Source: Heterodontus francisci (taxonomy: Eukaryota). From it: a stretch of DNA of 64,000 nt. Position 1 is the first letter of the stretch, and each line of letters opens with the position of its first letter. The stretch lies in contig NC_090371.1 of NCBI RefSeq assembly GCF_036365525.1, positions 135,962,737-136,026,736 on the forward strand, in the 5' to 3' direction. Below, one piece after another: positions 1-59,356 of the stretch. The notes under the pieces were generated by a model. It had not been told where the DNA came from and did no database searches. It was given only the letters and a program-made list of their open reading frames with translations. Position numbers and translations under genes: made by a program.

Positions 1-757
1 GCCTCATTCTTGGCAGGTGGGGGCCTAGCTTGACACCTCCACACCCAGCAGAATGAAATGCGACTTGAGAAAAGGCGCATTTCATGAAAAGGATCGAGGA
101 AAAATGTAAGATACAGAACAAACCATGCATTTCTCTCATTAATTTCCATTCATTCATAAATCCTAAAACTTATTACAGCCTGTCTTCTCTTGGTGCCAGT
201 GCTGCTTTAATTGCCCCCTTTTTGGCATCCCAATAAACGTATTTTTATTTTGGGAAGTTTCTCTTCCATTTGCCCATTTCCATGGCTGCCTAGGGTCTTT
301 GTTCCTGCTGTCAGGAACATTAGTTTTTCATACCCACTGTTTATGTGGCCTATTCAGAAAATCTCTTTCTTCGCATCAAGGCCCAAGTCATTTATTTTTC
401 ACAGATTTATTAATGGTTGCTGCACTATCTCTGCGTTTCAAGAAAACTGGCATGATAAATTTGTTGCTTCTGCTAGTGGAATGTGTGTAGAGATTAACCT
501 CCATCAACTTTCTCGCAGGCAACCATATGTGGATACAAGTGTTATAATGTTAATGAGAATTAACAGAAATGACATTCACCACCTAGTGGTACATTATAAA
601 ACTACAAACGCAGTGATTGTGTACAATTTGTATGCATAGTAATACAAAAACATCACTCTTAATTTTGACAATTTCCCCAAAAATGTCTGAGATGGAAGTT
701 GTTCATAGACAAAAAAGATCTCACCCCTAAACACAAGCAAGAAATTGTGCTTACAGT

Positions 758-1270
758 GGGCTGAATTTTCCTGTTTGAGTTGCAAGCCCAACGTCAGGCT
801 GATTTCTGGGTTGTGAACCTGGACATGCTCATGGCTTGATTTCGGGATTCCCCCTTCTGGAAGGATGCCAATTAAGAAGCCACCTCCGGGAGCGCAGTCT
901 GATCCGGGAGTGTCAATCAGAGCACCCGACGTGAAGGGTGGCTAGCAGACCCATTGTGAATGCTGTGTGCTGCTGAGGTAAATGGAGAAAGAGAGGGTGG
1001 CACAAGATGGAAGCACCATACTGCTAATGCAACCGGCAGCCAATTTCTCTCACCCAGCAGTATCTGGTGGCTCCGGCTGCAGGTGAGAAGCAAACTATTA
1101 CAGGTTTTTTCCTTCCGATGTCCTGAGGATTGCCAGTTTTCTGCTTTAAAGTGACCACTGCACATCAGTCCATGGCACTTCGACTTCCGGCTCTACTCTT
1201 GCTTCCTGTGAGTAGACGAGCTGCAGACGCAGCGGGGGTCCCATGTGCTGCTGACAAAATGTCATCGCCT
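758..1270. mobile_element. Non-autonomous PIF/Harbinger-like DNA transposon remnant
   Basis: Begins gggctgaatttt, the terminal motif also seen at 8208 and 17824. GC-richer than its flanks and contains the ccaattaag subterminal motif. Right end uncertain. Confidence 0.5.
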
Positions 1271-2087
1271 TCCAAAAATGCCTGCTAATTGTTTCCACAA
1301 TTGCCTTAATTGGCTTTCCACTGTTGATGGGCAGCTTGCAGTCACTACTCTGAAGCCCTCAAGTGATTTGATTGTGTCATGAAAAGGTGTCATGTTTACA
1401 TGGATGAAAACAAGCCAGCCTTTGGTACATGGGTCTTCAAAACAGGGCATTTGGTCACCCTATTTTAAGGAGGAGAGGGAAGCTCATTGACAAAAAAAAA
1501 ATGGGGTGGGGGAAAGAACCTGTATATAATTTTCCACCTCATTTTGCACATGTTGTAAAATGAGTCTAAAAATGTTTAGGTATTTGGAACAGTGATGATT
1601 TTCTAATAAGAAAGAAAAAAGAAGACTTGCTCTTTTCAAATACTTTGTTTTGAGGTGTTGCTAAGAAAATCAGCAATCACATACAAAATCCACAAGTTTC
1701 GTTTGTGCACGCAAACCTCAGTCTTAAACCTCGACATAGTGAAGTAAGACAGAAAGGGAATTTGAAATGCAGCAGCTATAATGCCTCCGAGCTGAACCAA
1801 GGCACTGCATACTATATTAAACTGGTACTAAATAATATTATGTCCTTATAATGGTATTGATTGTAGGCTTCATTTGTTAAGTAAAAATTCAGGTCATTGA
1901 ACGGCACAGTGATGGCGATCAAATAGCTGTAGGGTGAGTGAAATATTTCTGTTGTAGTGTGAGCTTTTGTTTGTAGAAGGAAACATGGTAAATTTGCCAC
2001 TAAAATGCAATCTTTTATATTCCTGTTATAGTAGATGGGCTTCCATGTGTTGCATGAGCAACCATACATAGGTTGTTGTATTTGAAG

Positions 2088-5975: not shown

Positions 5976-8107
5976 GCCATGACGGATTGGGAAACGTTAC
6001 TTAAAGGGATGATGGTGGATAGGCAATGGCAAACATTCAAAGAGCGCATGGATGAACTGCAACAATTGTTTATCCCTGTCTGGCGCAAAAGTAAAACGGG
6101 AAAGATAGCCAAACCATGGCTTACAAGGGAAATTAGAGATAGCATTAGATCCAAGGAAGAGGCATATAAATTTGCCAGGAAAAACAACAGACCTGAGGAT
6201 TGGGAGCAGTTTAGAATTCAGCAAAGGAGGATCAAGGGATTGAATAAGAAGGGGAAAATAGAATATGAGAGCAAGCTTGCGGGGAACATAAAAACTAACT
6301 GTAAAAGTGGTGAAGACAAATGTAGATCCCTAACAGTCAGAAACAGTGGAATTTATTATGGGAAACAAAGAAATGGCTGACCAGCTAAATGCATACTTTG
6401 GTTCTGTCTTCACAAAGGAGGACACAAATATCATACCAGAAATGTTGGGGAACACAGGGCTTAGTGAGAGAGAGGAGCTGAAGGAAATCAGTATTAGTAG
6501 AGAAATGGTGTTGGGGAAATTGATGGGATTGAAGGCTGATAAATCCCCAAGGCCTGATAATCTACATCCCAGAGTACTCAAGGAAGTGGCCCTAGAAATA
6601 ATGGATGCATTGCTGGTCATCTTCCAAGATTCTATAGACTCTGGAACAGTTCCTACAGATTGGAGGGTAGCTATTGTAACCCCACTATTTAAAAAGTGAG
6701 GTAGAGAGAAAGCAGGGAATTATACACCAGTCAGCCTGATGTCGGCAGTAGGAAAAATTCTAGAGTCCATTATCAAAGATTTTATAGCAGAGCACTTAGA
6801 AAACAGTGGTACAATCGGGCAGGGTCAGCATGGATTTACGAAAGGGAAATCATGCTTGACAAATCTACTAGAGTTCTTCCAGGATGTAACTAGTAGAGTT
6901 GATGAGGGGGAGCCAGTGGATGTGGTTTATTTGGACTTTCAGAAGGCTTTTGACAAAGTACCACATAAGAGATTAGCATGTAAAATTAAAGCGCATGAGA
7001 TTGGGGGTAGTGTATTGCAATGGATAGAAAATTGGTTGGCAGACAGGAAACAAAGAGTAGGGATAAATGGGTCTTCTTCCAAATGGCAGGCAGTGACTAG
7101 TCGGGTACCGTGGGGATCGGTGCTAGGACCCCAGCTATTCACAATATACATTAATGATTTAGATGAGGGAATTAAATGTAATATCTGCAAATTTGCAGAT
7201 GACACAAAACTGGGTGGGAGGTGTGAGTTGTGAGGAGGATGCAGAGAGGCTTCAGAGTGATTTTACAAGTTGAGTGAGTGGGCTAATGCATGGCAGATGC
7301 AGTATAATGTGGATAAATGTGAGGTTATCCACTTTGGTAGCAAAGACAGGAAGACAGATTATTATCTGGCGGGCTATAAACTGAGAGAGGGGAATATGCA
7401 ATGAGACCTGGGTGTTCTCGTACATCAGTCGCTGAAGGTAAGCATGCAGGTGCAACAGGCGGTAAAAAAGGCAAATGGTATGTTGGTCTTCATAGCGAGA
7501 GGATTTGAGTACAGGAGCAGGGATGTCTTGCTGCAATTATACAGGGCCTTGGTGAGGCCACACCTGGAATATTGTGTGCAGTTTTGGTCTCCTTATCTGA
7601 GGAAGGATGTTCTTGCTATAGAGGGAGTGCAGCGAAGATTTTCCAGACTGATTCCTGGGATGGCAGGATTGAAGTATGAGGAGAGATTGAGTCGGTTAGG
7701 ATTATATTTGCTGGAGTTCAGAAGAGTGAGGGGGATCTCATAGAAACCTATAAAATTCTAACAGGACTTGATAGGGTCGATGCAGGAAGGATGTTCCCGA
7801 TGGTGGGGGAGTCCAGAACCTGGGGTCATAGTCTAAGGATACGGGGTAAACCATTCAGGACTGAGATGAGAAATTTCTTCACCCTGAGAGTGGTGAACCT
7901 GTGGAATTTGCTACTACAGAAAGCAGTTGAGGCAAAAACATTGTATCTTTTCAAGAAGGAGTTGGATGTAGCTCTTGGATCTAAAGGGATCAAAAGGCGA
8001 AAGCGGGAATCGGCTACTGAGTTGGATGATCAGCCATGATCATAATGAATGGAGGAGCAGGCTCAAAGAGCTCAATGGCTTACTGCTATTTTTTCTATGT
8101 TTCTATG
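5976..8107 (+). mobile_element. 5'-truncated decayed CR1 LINE
   Basis: ORF2 fragments QHGFTKGKSCLTNL, YLDFQKAFDKVPH, KFADD and RPHLEYCVQFWSP with stops and frameshifts. Ends in a (ttctatgt)n tail. Confidence 0.95.
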
Positions 8108-18134: not shown

Positions 18135-18470
18135 CCTCATTCTGCATTACAGGAGAGGGGGGGGGGGGGTACACGGGGGTCTAACTCTGCATCCTTAAAT
18201 GGTGGGTGGGATATGCAGGGGTCTAACTGCATTTATAAATGGAGGAGGGGGGGGGATACACGGGTCTAACTCTGCTTTCTTAAAGGGAAGAGAGAGGGGG
18301 GATACACAGGGGTCTAACTCTGCATTCTTAAATGGAGGAGGGGGGATACACGGGTCTAACTCTGCATTCTTAAATGGAGGAGAGGGGTGAGGGATACACA
18401 GGGTCTAACTCTGCATTCTTAGAGGGAGGAGGGGTGGGTGAATACACAGGGGTCTCACTCTGCATTCTGA
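18135..18470 (+). repeat. G-rich minisatellite, about 7 units of 41-49 bp
   Basis: Repeated core gggatacac(a)gggtctaactctgcattcttaaatggagga at about 18177, 18218, 18262, 18311, 18352, 18401 and 18450. Confidence 0.9.
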
Positions 18471-18999
18471 AAACTGTACTGGTGTGAAGGGAGGTACCAT
18501 GTACCATCCCTCCATTAACAGTGTACACGCTTTGTTTGTGAGGGGCAATGGCACACTTGGCACCCTGTGTCTGGGGAGGGTGCCAGAAAGGGCAGGAACA
18601 TTAAGGTTTTATGGATGGTGGGGGCAATCAATTCAGCTGGTAGGATCTTGATGTGGTCATGCTGTGCCACTCTGAGTGTTGGCCCAGATGGGCAATGCCA
18701 TGGCACGCCACATAGTGATCCAGGAAAGCAGCTGATGTACTCGTCAACACCAATCCATGCCCTGTTAGGAACCTTTGAATACATGCAGAGTTCAACTTTA
18801 TTTATCACATGGAGATAGATATGACTCATCCTACATTGTGTGATCCTCTGCACGTGAGGATCTGTATGTACCAGAGGCAATACCAACAGGCAGGTGTGAT
18901 CCACGTAAAGGCCCCTAGTCGTGAGCAGCATGCCCCAAGGGGAGCCTGCCATTACGGTTGCCGTGCATCTACAGGCCTCACATGACATGCCATCGGATG

Positions 19000-20525: not shown

Positions 20526-20683
20526 AAAGCGGAAAGTGCTGGGGTCACTCAGCAGGTCAGGCAGCATTTGTGGAGAGAGAAGCAGAGTTAACTGTCAGGT
20601 CTGTGAACTTGGACAAGTTAATTCTGCTTCTCTCTCCACAGATACTGCCTGACCTGCTGGATTTCTGCAGCACTTTCTGCTTT
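20526..20683. mobile_element. Penelope-like pLTR fold-back (inverted repeat)
   Basis: About 70-bp arms: aaagcggaaagtgctg..ctcagcaggtcaggcagcatttgtggagagagaagcagagttaac and its reverse complement, around a spacer of about 20 nt. Confidence 0.8.
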
Positions 20684-21169
20684 TCTGCCAGCCCCACTCT
20701 TCAGTCAGGTAAGTATTTCTTTGACAGCTGTCAGGAAGCAGGTGCTGGAGCGCTTAAAGTAGGGCCCCAGCACCTGCTGCACAGCTGTCAAAGGCACTCG
20801 CGCCGAATGTCCCGCCTCACCCCGCGTAATATGGAGAGGGCGGCTTGGCGCCGTTATTCTAATGAGCCCCCGCGATTAATATCACTCGAAGTTATTGGTT
20901 TAAAATTGGCTATAGATCAGCTTTTTTCGCTAAGAAAACAACTTGGTACAGGCTATGACTGAAATTACACACAAACTGTTTTGGGGAATGAGGGAAATAT
21001 TTATTTCATGTTGGATGGAGTAAGTGTATTCCGGCAGTTTTTAACAGGTTAACTGGGAGAATTTTTATATTTTGTGCCAGAAGTTAAGTGTTAGCAATGG
21101 TTTAGATGTTACTGCATTCAGATGCTAATTACAGGTGAAAACAGATGTCTGTTAGCTGGGTTTTGAGAA

Positions 21170-21694: not shown

Positions 21695-21880
21695 CTGTCA
21701 TCGACCTAAAATGTTAACGCTCTTTCTCTCTCCAGAGATGCTACTAGATCTTCTGAGTATTTCCAGCATTTTCTGTTTTTATTTCAGATTCCCAGCATTT
21801 TTGTTTTTATTTCAAATTTCCAGCATTTTCTGTTTTTCGTTCAGATTCCCAGCACCTGCAGTAATTTACTTTTATTTAAG
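21695..21880 (+). mobile_element. Penelope-like pLTR with degenerate hammerhead and triplicated 3' unit
   Basis: gacctaaaatgttaacgctctttctctctccagagatgct..ctgagtatttccagca followed by three tandem ~29-bp units. Confidence 0.75.
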
Positions 21881-23227
21881 ATGACATCAAGGCAGCATTT
21901 CAGCAAGTATGGCATCAAGGAACCCTAGCGAAACTGGAGTCAGTGGGAATTGGGGGAAAACTGTCTGCTGATTGGAGTCATACCCAGCATAAAGGAAGAT
22001 GGTTGTGGTTGATGGAGGTCAATCACCACCGTCCCAGGACTTCACTGCAGGAGTTCCTCAGGGTAATGTCTTAGACCCAACCATCTTAAGCTGCTTTATC
22101 AATGACCTTCCCTCCATCATAAGGTCAGAATTGGGGATGTTCGCTGATGATTGCACAACGTTCAGCACCATTCGCGACTCCACAGATACTGAAGCAGCCC
22201 ATGTCCATATGCAACAAGACCTGGACAATATCCAGGCTTGGGCTGATAAGTGGTAAGTAACATTCACGCCAAGCAAGGGCCAGGCAATGTTCATCTCAAA
22301 CAAGAGAGAATCAAACCATCTTCCCATGATGTTCAATGGCGTTACAATCGCTGAATCCCCCACTATCAACATCCTGGGGGTCACCATTGACCAGAAACTG
22401 AACTGGACCAGTCATATAAATGCTGTGGCTACAAGAACAGGTCAGGGGCTGAGATTTCTGCAGTGAGTAACTCACCTCCTGTCTTCCCAAAGCCTGTCCA
22501 CCATCTACAAGGCACAAGTCAGGAGTGTGATGGAATATTCTGCACTTGCCTGGATGGGTGCAGCTCCCACAACACTCAGGAAGCTCAACACCATCCAGGA
22601 CAAAGCAGCCCACTTGATTGGCACTCCGTCCACCACCTTCAATCTTCACTCCCTCCACCACCGACGCACAGTGACAGCTGTGTGTACTATATACAATATG
22701 CTGAAAATACTCAGCAGGTCTGGCAGCATCTGTGGAAAGAGAAGCAGAGTTAATGTTTCACTGAAATGTTAACTCTGCTTCTCTCTCCACAGATGCTGCC
22801 AGACCTGCTGAGTGTTTCCAGCATTTCTTGTTTTTATTTCAGATTTTCAGTATTTTGCTTTTATATTATTGTACTATATACAAGATGCACTGCAGCAACT
22901 CACCAACGCTCCTTCACCAGCACCTTCCAAATCCACGATTTCTACCACCTAGAAGGACAAGGGCAGCAGATGCATGGGAACACCACCACCTGCAAGTTCC
23001 CCTCCAAGCCACACCCCTTCCTGACTTGGAACTATATCACTGTTCCTTCACTGTCATTGGGTCAAAATCCTGGAACTCCCTTCCTAACAGCACTGTTGGT
23101 GTACCTAGACCCCAAAGACTGCAGCGGTTCAAGAAGGCAGGTCACCGCCACTTTGTCAAAGGCAGCTCGGGATGGGCAATAAATGCTAGCCTAGTCAGTG
23201 ACGCCCACATCCCATGAACAAATAATA
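21881..23227 (+). mobile_element. Daphne/Crack-like LINE 3' part
   Basis: RT motifs AGVPQGNVLDP..FINDLP..MFADD and QQDLDNIQAWADKW. 3' end gggatgggcaataaatgc..cacatcccatgaacaaataa. Interrupted at 22697-22869. Confidence 0.85.
22697..22869. mobile_element. Penelope-like pLTR hairpin insertion with 14-bp TSD
   Basis: Arms 22698-22760 and 22762-22824 are near-perfect reverse complements. Exact TSD tgtactatatacaa at 22683-22696 and 22870-22883. Confidence 0.9.
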
Positions 23228-35270: not shown

Positions 35271-35646
35271 TCACAGTGATCAAGAGAACTGAAGAACAAA
35301 GAGAAAACAGCCAGATATATTTCTCTGCCTGGACAAGGAGCTGTCAATTCAACCCCTATCTTCAGAGATGCCCTTTTAAGCTTCTCCACTGGCAGGAGTG
35401 GGTACATTTACATTCAATGTAGCCTTTTGGAAATGGCAGTCAAAAGTTACAATGGTACTTAGCTGCCTCTAGTACAACACAAAGCTGACTCATTAGGAAC
35501 TGTACCAGATATTCAGAACTATGAGATTTTTCCCTAGACCTGAAGAGTTGGAATTATCAGTCAGAACAATTGAGGTTATTGTTTACAATCACCCAAGCTA
35601 AAATAAATCAGACCATCATTTCCATCCAAACATAAGGAATCATAGA

Positions 35647-35825
35647 TAAAAACAGAAAATGCTGGAAATACTCAGCAGGCCAGGCAGCATCAGAATGGTT
35701 CTGTTGAAAGGTTACAGACCTGAAACGTTAACTCCTTTTCTTTCTCCACAGATGCTAAATGACCTGCTGAGTATTTCCAGCGTTTTCTGTTTTTATTTCA
35801 GATTTCCAGCATTATTCTGTTTTTG
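35647..35825 (+). mobile_element. Penelope-like pLTR with short inverted 5' arm and mutated hammerhead
   Basis: Inverted arm 35647-35691, then ggtt-ctgttga-a-aggtt-aca-gacct-gaaa-cg-tt-aact and the pLTR body. Confidence 0.8.
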
Positions 35826-35829
35826 TATG

Positions 35830-40735: not shown

Positions 40736-40751
40736 TATTGTTTCCACATTA

Positions 40752-41505
40752 ATATAAAAGCAAAATGCTGCAGATGCTGGAAATCTGAAATAAAAACAAG
40801 AAATGCTGGAAATACTCAGCAGGTCTGGCAGAATCTGTGGAGAGAGAAGCAGAGTTAACGTTTCAGGTCAGTGACCCTTCATCAGAACTGGCAAATATGA
40901 GAAATGTAATAGGTTTTAAGCAAGTAAAGCAGGGGCGGGGCAAGAGATAACAAAAGAGAAGGTGTTGATAGGACAAGGTCACAGAGAATAACTGACCAGA
41001 AGGTCATGGAGCAAAGGCAAATGGTATGTTAATGGTGTGTTGAAAGACAAAGCATTAGTACAGAAAGGGTATTAATTGACAGAAAAATGAACAGCCCTGG
41101 CCCCAAGCACAAACATGAAAAAATCAGCAGGCAGGCACAGTAGAAACAAAGTAAAATAAAATGAACAAGGAAAAAGAAAAAATAACTAAAAATAAAAATA
41201 GGGGCCTGTCATACTATGAAATTATTGAACTCAATGTAGCGTGCCTAATCGGTAAATGAGGTGCTGTTACTCGAGCTTGCGTTGATGTTCACTGGAACAC
41301 TGCAGCAATTCCAGGACAGAGTTGTGGGCACAAAAGCAGGGGGAGTGTTGAAATGGCCAGCAACCGGAAGCTCGGGGTCGTGCTGATAACACAAAACTAG
41401 GTGGAATGTGAAATAAAAACAAAAAGTACTGAAAATACTCAGCAGGTCTGGCAGCATCTGTGGAGAGAGAAGCAAAGTTAACATTTCAGGTCAGTGACCT
41501 TTCAT
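40752..41505 (-). mobile_element. Penelope-like element 3' portion: pLTR, GIY-YIG C-terminus, 3' UTR, pLTR
   Basis: Minus strand HDPELPVAGHFNTP and QCSSEHQRKLE*QHLIYRLGTL (41240-41385) match the GIY-YIG C-terminus of Penelope-like elements. Direct pLTR copies at 41408-41505 and 40752-40890. Confidence 0.85.
40853..40889 (-). ncRNA. Minimal type I hammerhead ribozyme (Penelope pLTR)
   Basis: AGUU-CUGAUGA-A-GGGUC-ACU-GACCU-GAAA-CG-UU-AACU. Stem I AGUU/AACU, conserved core, stem II, palindromic ACGU stem III, GUU cleavage triplet. Confidence 0.8.
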
Positions 41506-41506
41506 A

Positions 41507-42940
41507 ATTCACGGGATGTGGACGTCGCTGGCTAGGCCAGCATTTATTGCCCATCCCTAATTGCCCTTGAGAAGCTGGCGGTGAGCCACCTTCTTGAACT
41601 GCTGCAGTCCATGTGGGGTAGGTACACCCACAGTGCTGTTAGGAAGGGGATTCCAGGATTTTGACCCAGCGACAGTGAAGGAATGGCGATCTAGTTCCAA
41701 GTCAGGGTGGTGTGTGGCTTGGAGGGGAACTTGCAGGTGGTGGTGTTCCCATGCATCTGCTGCCATTCTCCTTGTAGGTGGTAGAGTTTGCAGGTTTGGA
41801 AGTTGCAGTCGAAGGAGCCTTGGTACATTGCTGCTGTGCATCTTTCAGATGGTACACACTGCTGCCACTGTGCGTTGGTGGTGGGGAGTGAATGTTTGTG
41901 GATGGGGTGCCAATCAAGCGGGCTGCTTTGTTCTGGATGGTGTTCAGCTTCTTGAGTGTTATCGGAGCTGCACCCATCCAGGCAACTGGAAAGTGTTTCA
42001 TCACACTCCTGGCTTGTGCCTTGTAGATGGTGGACAGGCTTTGGGGAGTCAGGAGGTAAGTTACTCGCTGCAGGGTTCCTAGCCTCTGACCTGCTCTTGT
42101 AGCCATAGTATTTATATGGCTACTCCAGTTAGTTTCGGATAACCCCCAGGATGTTGATCTTGGGGGATTCAGTGATCATAATACCATTGAATATCATGGG
42201 GAGATGGTTAGATTCTCTCTTGTTGGAGATAGTCATTTCCTGGCACTTGTGTGGCACAAATGTTACTTGTCACTTATTAGCCCAAGCCTGGATATTGTCC
42301 AGGTCCTGCTGCATTTCTACACTGACAACTTCAGTATCTGAGGAGTCTCGAATGGTGCTGAACATTGTGCAATCATCAGTGAACATCTCCACTTCTGACT
42401 TTATGATTGAAGGAAGGTCATCGATGAAGCAGCTGAAGATGTTTGGGCCTAGAACACTACCCTGAGGAACTCCTGCAGTGATGACCTGGAGCTGAGATGA
42501 TTGACCTCCAACAACCACAACCATCTTCCTTTGCGCTCCCACCAGCGGAGAGGTTTCCCCCTGATTTCCATTGACTCCAGTTTTGCTAGGGCACCTCGAT
42601 GTCATACTCGGTCAAATGCTGCTTTGATGTCAAGGGCAGTCACTCTCACCTCACCTCTTGAGTTCAGCTCTTTTGTCCATGTTTGAACCAAGGCTGTAAT
42701 GATGTCAGGAGTTGAGTGGCCCTGGCGGAATCCAAACTGCGCGTCACGGAGCAGGTTATTGCTAAGCAAGCGCCGCCTGATAGTACTGTCGACGGTACCA
42801 TCCATCACTTTACTGATGAGCGAGAGTAGACTGATGAGGCGGTAATTAACCGGGTTGGACTTGTCCTGCTTTTTGTGTACAGGACATATCTGGGCAATTT
42901 TCCACATTGCTGGATAAATGCCAGTGTTGTAGCTGTACTG
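41507..42940 (-). mobile_element. Daphne/Crack-like LINE 3' part
   Basis: QFGFRQGHST, ALDIKAAFDRV and AGVPQGSVLGP..MFTDD. Same family as 21881-23227. Confidence 0.88.
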
Positions 42941-56380: not shown

Positions 56381-59240
56381 ATAGAAACATAAACATAGAA
56401 AATAGGAGCAGGAGTAGGCCATTCGGCCCTTCGAGCCTGCTCCGCCATTTATTATGATCACAGCTGTAACCTGTTCCCGCTTTCCCCCCCAAATCCTTGG
56501 ATCCTTTTTGCTCCAAGAGCTATATCTAACTCCTTCTTGAAAACATACAATGCCTCAACTGCTTTCTGTGGTAGCGAATTTCACAGGTTCACTACTCTCT
56601 GGGTGAAGAAATTTCTCCTCATCTCAGTCCTGAAACGTTTACCCCATATCCTTTGACTATGACCCCTGGTTCTGGACTCCCCCACCATCAGGAACATCCT
56701 TCCTGCATCTACCCTGTCAAGTCTTGTTAGAATTTTATAGGTTTCTATGTGATCCCCCCTCTGTCTTCTGAACTCCAGCGAGTATAATCCTAACCGACTC
56801 AATCTCTCCTCGTACGTCAATCCCACCATCCCAGGAATCAGTCTGGTAAACCTTCGCTGCACTCCCTCTATAGCAAGAATATCCTTCCTCAGATAAGGGG
56901 ACCAAAACGGCACACAATATTCCAGGTGTGGCCTCACCAAGGCCCTGTATAATTGCAGCAAGACATCCCTGCTCCTGTACTCTAATCCTCTCGCTATGAA
57001 GGCCAACATACCATTTGCCTTTTTTACCGCCTGTTGCACCTGCATGCTTACCTTCAGCGACTGGTGTACGAGAACATCCAGGTCTCGTTGCATATTCCCC
57101 TCTCTCAGTTTATAGCCATTCAGATAATCTGCCTTCCTGTTTTTGCTACCAAAGTGGATAACCTCACATTTGTCCACATTATACTGCATCTGCCATGCAT
57201 TAGCCCACTCACTCAACTTGTCCAAATCACCCTGAAGCCTCTCTGCATCCTCCTCACAACTCACCCTCCCACTCAGTTTTGTGTCACATGCAAATTTGGA
57301 GATATTACATTTAGTTACCTCCTCTAAATCATTAATATATATTGTAAATAGCTGGGGTCCTAGCACTGATCCCTGCGGTACCCCACTAGTCACTGCCTGC
57401 CATTCGGAAAAAGATTCCTACTCTTTGTTTCCTGTCTGCCAACCAATTTTCTATCCATCGCAATACACTACCCCCAATCCCATGCGCTTTAATTTTACAC
57501 GCTACTCTCATATGTGGGACTTTGTCGAAAGCCTTCTGAAAGTCCAAATAAGCCACATCCACTGGCTCCCCCTCATCAACTCTACTAGTTACATCCTCAA
57601 AGAATTCTATTCGATTTGTCAAACATGATTTCCCTTTCATAAATCCATGCTGACTCTGTCCAATTCTACCACTGTTCTCCAAGTGCTCTGCTATAAAATC
57701 TTTGATAATGGACTCTCAAATTTTCCCCCGTACCGACGTCAGGCTGACTGGTCTATAATTCCCTGTTTTCTCCCTACCTCCCTTTTTAAATAGTGGGGTT
57801 ACAATAGCTACCCTCCAATCTGTAGGAACTGTTCCAGAGTCTGTAGAATCTTGGAAGATGACCAGCAATGCATCCATTATTTCTAGGGCCACTTCCTTGA
57901 GTACTCTGGGATGTAGATTATCAGGCCCTGGGGATTTATCAGCCTTCAATCCCATCAATTTCCCCAACACCATTTCTCTACTAATACTGATTTCCTTCAG
58001 CTCCTCTCTCTCACTAAGCCCTGTGTTCCCCAACATTTCTGGTATGATATTTGTGTCCTCCTTTGTGAAGACAGAACAAAAGTATGCATTTAGCTGGTCA
58101 GCCATTTCTTTGTTTCCCATAATTAATTCCCCTGTTTCTGACATTTGTCTTCAATCTTTTTTTCTTCACATACCTATAGAAACTTTAACAGTCAGTTTTT
58201 ATGTTCCCCGCAAGCTTACTCTCGTACTCTGTTTTCCCCTTCTTAATCAATCCCTTGGTCCTCCTTTGCTGAATTCTAAACTGCTCCCAATCCTCAGTTC
58301 TGTTGTTTTTTCTGGCGAGTTTGTATGCCTTTTCCTTGGATCTAATACTATCTCTAATTTCCCTTGTAAGCCATGGTTTGGCTACCTTTCCTGTTTTACT
58401 TTGCGCCAGACAGGAATAAACAATTGTTGCAGTTCATCCATGCGCTCTTTGAATGTTTGCCATTGCCTATCCACCATCATCCATTTAAATAACACTTCCC
58501 AATCTATCATAGCCAACTCGCGCCTCATACCTTCTCCGTTTCCTTTATTTAGATTCAGCACCCTAGTCTCAGAATCAACTACGTCACTCTTCATCTTGAT
58601 GAAGAATTCTATCATATTATGGTCGCTCATCCCCAAGGGGTTTTGCGCAACTAGATTGTCAATTATTCCTCTCTCATTACACAATACCCATTCTAGGATG
58701 GCCTGTTCTCTAGTTGGTTCCTCAATGTATCGGTCCAGAAAACCATCCTGTATACACTCCATGAATTCCTCCTCTACGGTATTGTGACTAATTTGATTTG
58801 CCCAATCTATATGCAGATGAAAGTCACCCATAATTACAGATGTTCCTTTATCACATGCATCTCTAATTTCCTGTTTAATGCCATTCCCAACATCACCACT
58901 ACAGTTTGGGGGTCTATATACAACCCCCACTAATGTTTTTTGCCCCTTAGTGTTTCTCAGCTCTACCCATACAGATTCCACATCGTCAGAGCTAATATCC
59001 TTCCTCACTATTGCTTTAATTTCCACTTTAACCAGCTATGCAACTCCACCGTCTTTTACTTTTTGTCTGTCCTTCCTAAATACTGAATACCCCTGGATGT
59101 TCATTTCTCATCCCTGGTCACCCTGCAGCCATGTCTCTGTAATCCCGCCTATATCATACCCGTTTACATCTATTTGCGCGATTAATTCATCCACTTTATT
59201 GTGAAGGCTCCACACGTTAAGGCATAAAGCCTTAAGACTT

Positions 59241-59356
59241 ATATAATATAAAATAAAAACAAGAACTGCTGGAAATACTCAGCAGGTCTGGCAGCATCTG
59301 TGGAGAGAGAGAAGCAGAGTTAACGTTTCAGGTCAGTGACCCTTCTTCAGAACGGT
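59241..59356 (-). mobile_element. Solo Penelope-like pLTR insertion
   Basis: Flanked by 12/14 duplication aagccttaagactt (59227-59240) / aagccttgaggctt (59357-59370) within the CR1. Confidence 0.85.
59319..59353 (-). ncRNA. Minimal type I hammerhead ribozyme
   Basis: GUU-CUGAAGA-A-GGGUC-ACU-GACCU-GAAA-CG-UU-AAC. Core intact (position 7 is variable). Confidence 0.75.

Follow-up and report, generated by a model that had tools for sequence, protein, structure and literature searches.

In the 64,000-nucleotide stretch of DNA analysed here (the window), a 173-bp insert enclosed by two identical 14-mers (22683-22696 and 22870-22883) is a one-off, 5′-truncated, head-to-head insertion of an EN+ Penelope-like element (PLE). 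Its probable origin is a cut with a 14-nt stagger whose two strands each served as primer for reverse transcription of PLE RNA, a reading drawn, like all the mechanistic evidence below, from genomic end products. The focal locus is an ordinary dead copy and its footprint is of an already known kind, an inverted, 5′-truncated copy with a one-sided tail and a TSD being standard PLE anatomy. Canonical complex insertions of EN+ PLEs are described as an inverted, 5′-truncated pLTR with an optional tail of 30-40 bp and a short TSD (PMC8557442, PMC3846280). The focal insert resembles them in its head-to-head arms, one-arm tail, TSD, pLTR hammerhead and a parent element encoding RT along with GIY-YIG at the C-terminus, and differs from them in its tiny arms and in carrying no ORF.

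The left TSD (22683-22696, forward strand) consists of 14 bp of the host LINE and is followed by one extra T at 22697. Two inverted arms of 63 nt each, 22698-22760 and 22762-22824, are 92% complementary and separated by a spacer of 1 nt; folded as RNA, the hairpin has a z of -16, and equal stability was reached in 0 of 200 shuffles. In a numbering in which q+1 is the first C of CTGATGA, the inverted, untailed arm (22698-22760, reverse strand) spans pLTR q21-83 and the direct, tailed arm (22761-22869, forward strand), compared with the ends of L022 and L211, spans q20-136 with a 9-nt internal deletion in its tail. The final four TSD letters on the side of the inverted arm also match q87-90, and it is an equally good reading that this arm was primed near q90 and later lost a small segment. 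The tail of about 35 nt is on the direct arm only (22839-22869, forward strand) and lies between the two clusters in which the 3′ ends of the family fall (q94-100 and q130-136 in a histogram of 117 segments). It is followed by the right TSD (22870-22883, forward strand). The junction between the arms falls in the final two bases of hammerhead helix II, adjoining GAAA, and positions 22761-22774 (forward strand) retain a remnant of a minimal type-I hammerhead, as defined in PMC4209133 and judged by the motif and by pairing in 40 random copies. This remnant comprises the last 2 nt of helix II, GAAA, a CpG-decayed helix III and the 3′ strand of helix I, with the predicted cut after 22770; CUGAUGA is missing, as is the remainder of helix II, and the ribozyme cannot form there. 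The first-pass annotation had described this geometry from the letters alone, namely the insert in a LINE with a perfect 14-bp TSD, the two arms of about 63 bp set 1 nt apart, the inversion point at the end of stem II next to GAAA and a PLE origin with an inverted pLTR and GIY-YIG/RT machinery, and in all of this it was right; the restriction of the tail to one arm and the loss of the ribozyme had escaped it.

The insertion splits the 3′ part of a host LINE (21986-23218, forward strand), which we take to be of CR1/L2 type. The LINE is recognized by an RVT_1 match at 21993-22253 (E 1.8e-6, 28.2 bits, slightly below the curated cut-off) and by 84-87% identity to a copy elsewhere in the window (41508-42537). 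For an empty-site comparison, the focal flanks were joined without the insert and aligned with the host-LINE copies that cross this position in 1.6 Mb of random sequence, and all 41 such copies have the 14-mer once; the second LINE copy within the window is also empty at the insertion site. The commonest form of the 14-mer in empty copies (17 of 41, among the 12 commonest forms listed) is two letters off both focal copies. The focal TSD thus carries two derived letters twice and was therefore duplicated after the LINE had aged. By chance, the TSD matcher returned at least 8 bp in 3 of 300 shuffled flank pairs and at least 10 bp in none of the 300. The focal TSD is a genuine duplication. In a look-up for the orthologous site and for polymorphism, the contigs of four DNA runs were dominated by other LINE and PLE copies.

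The window holds further copies of the same PLE family. Two older fold-back copies lie at 20534-20684 (q12-85 and q27-93) and 35638-35828 (q51-104 and q-2 onward), a longer linear copy with a complete hammerhead motif and a tail at 40750-41198 (reverse strand), and a short, untailed linear copy, q-2 to q104, with a complete hammerhead motif at 59245-59353 (reverse strand). An older linear copy at 21697-21875 contains the tail unit three times in tandem. Among other repeats, about six copies of a G-rich tandem unit of 42-49 nt occupy 18159-18472, and a long repeat is present at 5976-7870 and 56618-58513 in opposite orientations, about 50 kb apart and with 89-95% identity.

The insert corresponds to the 3′ end (pLTR) of an abundant EN+ PLE in this 6-Gb genome, whose longer copies run into an RT reading frame. 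A protein search of the genome found a 924-codon open frame in 24 of 150 scored matches, several of them arranged as tandem or head-to-head pairs, and a full 924-codon copy lies about 1.07 Mb downstream of the window (G000:C1:137094981). One locus (L211) contains a 3290-bp tandem unit in which this frame is the single ORF, encoding RT and then a C-terminal GIY-YIG (RVT_1 E 6e-6, GIY-YIG E 0.002, both under the Pfam curated cut-offs); its hammerhead and both start sites of reverse transcription lie about 170 nt upstream of the first ATG. Against the end of the element unit, the focal insert matches L022 at 91-95%. By eye, the L211 translation has a C-x4-C-x2-C just ahead of GIY-YIG, two cysteines within GIY-YIG and a DKG motif, features in common with Neptune/Nematis-type PLEs. 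A CX2-5CxxC linker motif between RT and EN marks those PLEs according to PMC8557442, where Neptune is described as paraphyletic. The parent element would accordingly be of Neptune/Nematis type, an assignment that rests on the linker motif and covers both names. No relative of the 924-codon ORF was found in the PDB, and a 227-aa piece from L026 gave no Pfam match. Extrapolated from a 1.6-Mb random sample, the family numbers about 4e5 insertions, and short fold-backs about 5e4 genome-wide (from 13 in 1.6 Mb). A candidate PLE tandem at G000:C22:35000001-35010000 was rejected, as it is a tRNA-Val array repeating about every 3.48 kb, in which every unit combines a single tRNA-Val(AAC) gene with a 3′ PLE fragment split by a SINE-like insert.

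Full copies carry a minimal type-I hammerhead motif in the pLTR, whose activity is a prediction. Helix I pairs q-3..0 with q30-33; the core q1-7 and an unpaired q8 are followed by helix II (q9-13 with q17-21), GAAA (q22-25) and a palindromic helix III, and cleavage is predicted after q29. The motif matches the minimal form described for PLEs in PMC4209133. Rfam detected no hammerhead in the window or in L211, and the motif is supported by pairing counts in its place: across 40 random copies the core letters are near-invariant, and the pair q9-q21 is G-C in 12, G-U in 10, A-U in 17 and A-C in none, counts that reflect few independent events. In the youngest, ORF-intact subfamily (L211:1316-1322; 12 of the 40 random copies) the core reads CCGAAGA for CUGAUGA (U4 to C), and the active lineage may carry a weakened or variant ribozyme.

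How such insertions arise was approached through an unbiased sample of 160 stretches of 10 kb, taken at round coordinates on contigs C1-C35 (1.6 Mb), in which ends are BLAST ends accurate to a few nt. It yielded 125 match groups, 103 with a pLTR end, and a head-to-head pair is present in 25 of these 103; the fold-back set, a small one, comprises the 18 with both outer ends at q80 or beyond, 13 of them short. The 3′ ends of 117 segments form two clusters, q94-100 and q130-136, about 35 nt apart, and their 5′ ends fall at q-5..0 in 36 cases, at q14-27 in 7, at q28-33 in 6 and more than 50 nt upstream in 27. Linear copies use either 3′ end (19 tailed and 16 untailed, n=35), but in fold-backs one arm has the tail and the other is without it in 17 of the 18 random and 21 of the 22 pattern-picked cases (p = 1.4e-4 against 50:50). 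Products of 100-140 nt ending at the presumed RNA 5′ boundary dominate the sample, and 10 of the 13 short random fold-backs have an arm ending at q-5..+1. That the breakpoints and TSDs of other copies should be tabulated had been proposed in the first-pass annotation, and other copies with TSDs do exist. Duplications of at least 8 bp flank 13 of 15 random fold-backs (the other 3 of the 18 lack readable flanks) and 19 of the 22 that were pattern-picked; for linear copies the figure is 11 of 33 (p = 0.0013, random fold-backs versus linear). Their lengths in random fold-backs run from 5 to 16 bp with a mode of 14 (five of 14 bp, three of 15 bp), and 26 TSDs show no clear cut-site motif beyond AT-richness. 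The centring on 14 bp compares with examples of 8-10 bp in the rotifer paper (PMC3846280).

The two arms are also offset. The untailed arm extends further 5′ in 12 of the 18 random fold-backs (reverse in 3, ties in 2, two tails in 1) and the tailed arm extends further 3′, so neither arm contains the other, as at L170 (q-1345..95 and q51..133); among pattern-picked fold-backs 13 of 21 are ties on 5′ reach, by design of the patterns. The same head-to-head anatomy spans about 170 bp to several kb, including insertions with ORFs, and five long inverted insertions of 4-8 kb (L212-L216) follow the same one-tail rule, with 11-14-bp duplications by eye. Between the two 2-kb inverted arms of one of these lies a 105-nt piece (L216:3286-3390; q-4 to about q100), which suggests that the RT switched template to a second RNA 5′ end, at its untailed start site.

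Taken together, these ends favour two-site double priming. Reverse transcription would begin at the inner site from one target end and at the end of the tail from the other, the template probably being one RNA copied twice, or two RNAs of a single source locus. Both cDNAs would extend toward the RNA 5′ end just before the hammerhead, then stop or be trimmed, and the cDNA ends would be joined end to end, often via 1-7 nt of microhomology. An RNA starting at q-4..-2 and primed at both sites would yield products of 100-140 nt ending at the RNA 5′ end, and TSDs would be frequent in fold-backs because both target ends are captured as primers. At the focal locus both cDNAs would have stopped at q20-21 and been joined bluntly; alternatively, a joint with 3-nt microhomology may have been followed by a 5-nt slip. 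The focal locus by itself says nothing on nesting, its arms ending at q21 and q20, and against double priming its untailed arm halts at q83-90, before the q94-100 that is usual. Deletions after insertion are another possible source of non-nested arms. Copying one RNA twice would require an RT without RNase H and with strand displacement, as this RT class has.

A common template is indicated by the identity of the arms within a locus. Two long fold-backs show no differences over 3154 sites (L213) and 2150 sites (L215), and their arms are at least 0.4% from every other locus compared. The arms of L212 differ at 2 sites, of L214 at 5, of L216 at 19 and of L038 at 3, one allele of each being absent from the other panel loci; L038 is uninformative in the ORF distance table, and L214a is 0.10-0.11% from other loci versus 0.16% from its own partner arm. 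At subfamily-diagnostic sites in 41 fold-backs, 11 of 316 comparisons are discordant versus 121.5 expected for independent copies, a rate on a par with the background of 4.0%, and 2 of the 11 are in the focal locus. Gene conversion, or a pair of transcripts from the same locus, could also produce matching arms.

Identical arms are also accounted for by self-priming, in which one cDNA, or else an antisense RNA, doubles back on itself at a palindrome and templates a second arm, which the endonuclease then shortens so that a single tail remains. Self-priming at palindromes has been proposed before, with antisense RNA for rotifer Penelopes (PMC3846280); resolution of the intermediate by the endonuclease would explain the tail asymmetry (PMC8557442), and junctions do recur at self-complementary sequence. 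It nevertheless predicts nested arms, where 12 of 18 random fold-backs are non-nested, and it leaves aside that untailed ends occur in 16 of 35 linear copies without any fold-back. Zero-loop palindromic junctions, of which there are 60 loci centred on AACGTT and 19 centred on GTTAAC, are impossible as intramolecular hairpins and therefore need two strands. We consider self-priming unlikely and double priming the better account.

Where the arms join was surveyed over the whole genome with patterns of equal design, each of two 11-nt inverted anchors with at most 13 nt between them. Loci number 2986 for the anchor q3-13, 205 for q14-24, 287 for q27-37 (including the focal locus) and 75 for q49-59, the downstream control. 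Among the loci listed over the same 1.07-Gb span (C1 to C5:130 Mb), q14-24 has 49, q27-37 has 50 and q49-59 has 20, and the q3-13 class reaches 50 already within 70 Mb; since the same-span counts of q14-24 and q27-37 are so close, the total of 287 may include duplicated loci. The anchors themselves match 33, 39, 53 and 77 times, in the same order, in the random sample, and being rarer near the 5′ end they understate the excess of junctions there. Breakpoints are thus non-random along the pLTR, as the first reading had anticipated: their numbers drop with distance from the RNA 5′ boundary, apart from local maxima at microhomologies, and the end of helix II is not special. Inversion junctions differ from locus to locus, and the exact focal junction has a single match in 6 Gb with CpG decay allowed. 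By eye, about 8 of 50 5′-end junctions on G000:C1 carry a 6-8-nt repeat of q6-13, as if RT had slipped back at the RNA end before joining; an interpretation of extra G letters at such junctions as cap copying was dropped, a 6-8-nt slip onto q6-13 fitting them equally by eye.

These counts bear on whether the hammerhead triggers a recurrent template switch or RT stop, at the end of helix II or through self-cleavage after q29, as the first-pass annotation had suggested for stem II. In its favour stand the 287 loci in which both ends fall immediately upstream of q27, compared with 75 at the downstream control (50 against 20 over the same span), and the AACGTT-centred junction beside GAAA, which recurs in 60 of the 287 loci and in one reading sets one arm exactly at the predicted cut. 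Junctions at the 5′ boundary are nevertheless ten times commoner, the like frequency of q14-24 and q27-37 over the same span describes a slope from the 5′ end with no peak at GAAA, and only 6 of 117 5′ ends lie at q28-33 against 36 at q-5..0. Both ends fall within q14-27 in 1 of 13 short fold-backs, the focal junction is unique, and ribozyme-dead mutants insert normally in vitro (PMC11167929). A trigger by the hammerhead is quite improbable. What stands of the suggestion is a minor recurrent junction at AACGTT, the helix III palindrome, best read as microhomology; under double priming the ribozyme would be a bystander whose self-complementary segments supply such microhomology.

A later shortening of the hairpin would also place the junction where it is found, if the arms had both reached the RNA 5′ end at insertion and the tip was then deleted between short repeats. 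Full-length hairpins are the commonest class, inverted arms convert palindromes into slippable direct repeats, and removing 5 nt from a known junction with 3-nt microhomology, present in 6 copies genome-wide, would give the focal one. Such a deletion would tighten an already unstable palindrome, opposite to the usual trend, and as it leaves tail pairing and TSD retention unexplained it can only modify double priming; as an explanation in its own right it is very improbable. A family of MITE-like, non-autonomous hairpins or of retrozymes that moves as one unit, also raised in the first-pass annotation, has next to no likelihood despite the roughly 5e4 short fold-backs extrapolated and junction types that recur tens of times, given that the focal junction occurs once in 6 Gb, loci sharing a junction differ in tail side and outer ends, the focal locus has an incomplete motif and no tandem hammerhead units, and the same anatomy is seen in kb-long, ORF-carrying insertions.

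Known systems place double priming among related processes. In L1 twin priming both target ends prime and microhomology joins the cDNAs, producing an inversion within the TSD; the internal priming site is arbitrary and the inversion is without duplication. The PLE cDNAs would instead both be copies of one stretch, begun at two fixed sites, and so form a hairpin. Non-LTR retrozymes (bioRxiv 10.64898/2026.07.22.740005) are likewise short, non-coding, PLE-derived and of type-I hammerhead lineage, but they are direct tandems with complete hammerheads, whereas the focal insert is inverted and ribozyme-dead. There is also a likeness to Poseidon of the lizard Anolis carolinensis, whose protein, a predicted dimer, in vitro cuts and extends both target strands and initiates at two internal positions of the RNA, one on either side of the tail, ribozyme cleavage not being needed (PMC11167929). 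Poseidon belongs to another clade, and in the sections available of that paper double priming is not invoked for the inverted arrangement or the one-tail rule.

A stronger proposition, that PLEs insert by obligate two-site double priming, with one RNP making the 14-nt staggered cut and both ends priming one RNA, could as easily be wrong as right. If it were true, the inverted pLTR, the tail on one side and the TSD would all follow from two fixed sites spaced by 35 nt, and most insertions would be 100-140-nt stubs or hairpins from the mRNA 5′ end, with no separate non-autonomous family. An RNA that begins just before the hammerhead already holds both start sites, and stubs and hairpins would therefore predominate. 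Shuffled sequences are as stable as a predicted stem-loop containing both start sites (z -0.3).

Candidates for the RNA 5′ end at q-4..-2 are a transcription start, a splice acceptor or processing. The CAGTT at this boundary is presumably initiator-like. In D. virilis an intron ends at helix I (PMC4209133). No splice joint at the CAG before the hammerhead was found among the 10 matches listed in contigs of four guessed RNA runs, a source that cannot show RNA ends, and 23 linear copies starting at q-5..+1 share no exon-like sequence upstream, scoring like random controls; a spliced exon 1 is unsupported, though conceivable in view of the D. virilis intron. Separately, in contigs of two guessed RNA runs from one sample the untailed end q93 is connected, across 4 letters, with an ORF position lying 214 nt downstream (L211:4698-4913), a joint that is non-canonical as a splice.

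The origin of the inverted pLTR and one-sided tail of PLEs is stated as unresolved in the available text of PMC8557442 and PMC3846280, and no double-priming proposal for PLE inverted repeats was found in the titles and abstract openings of the literature searched. With its intact elements and tens of thousands of young hairpins, this family is well suited to testing how the inverted repeats of PLEs arise, and the end statistics of the hairpins separate double priming from the published self-priming idea. For annotators, these PLE hairpins are neither MITEs nor retrozymes. The family itself matters modestly, and the part worth following is the double-priming rule.
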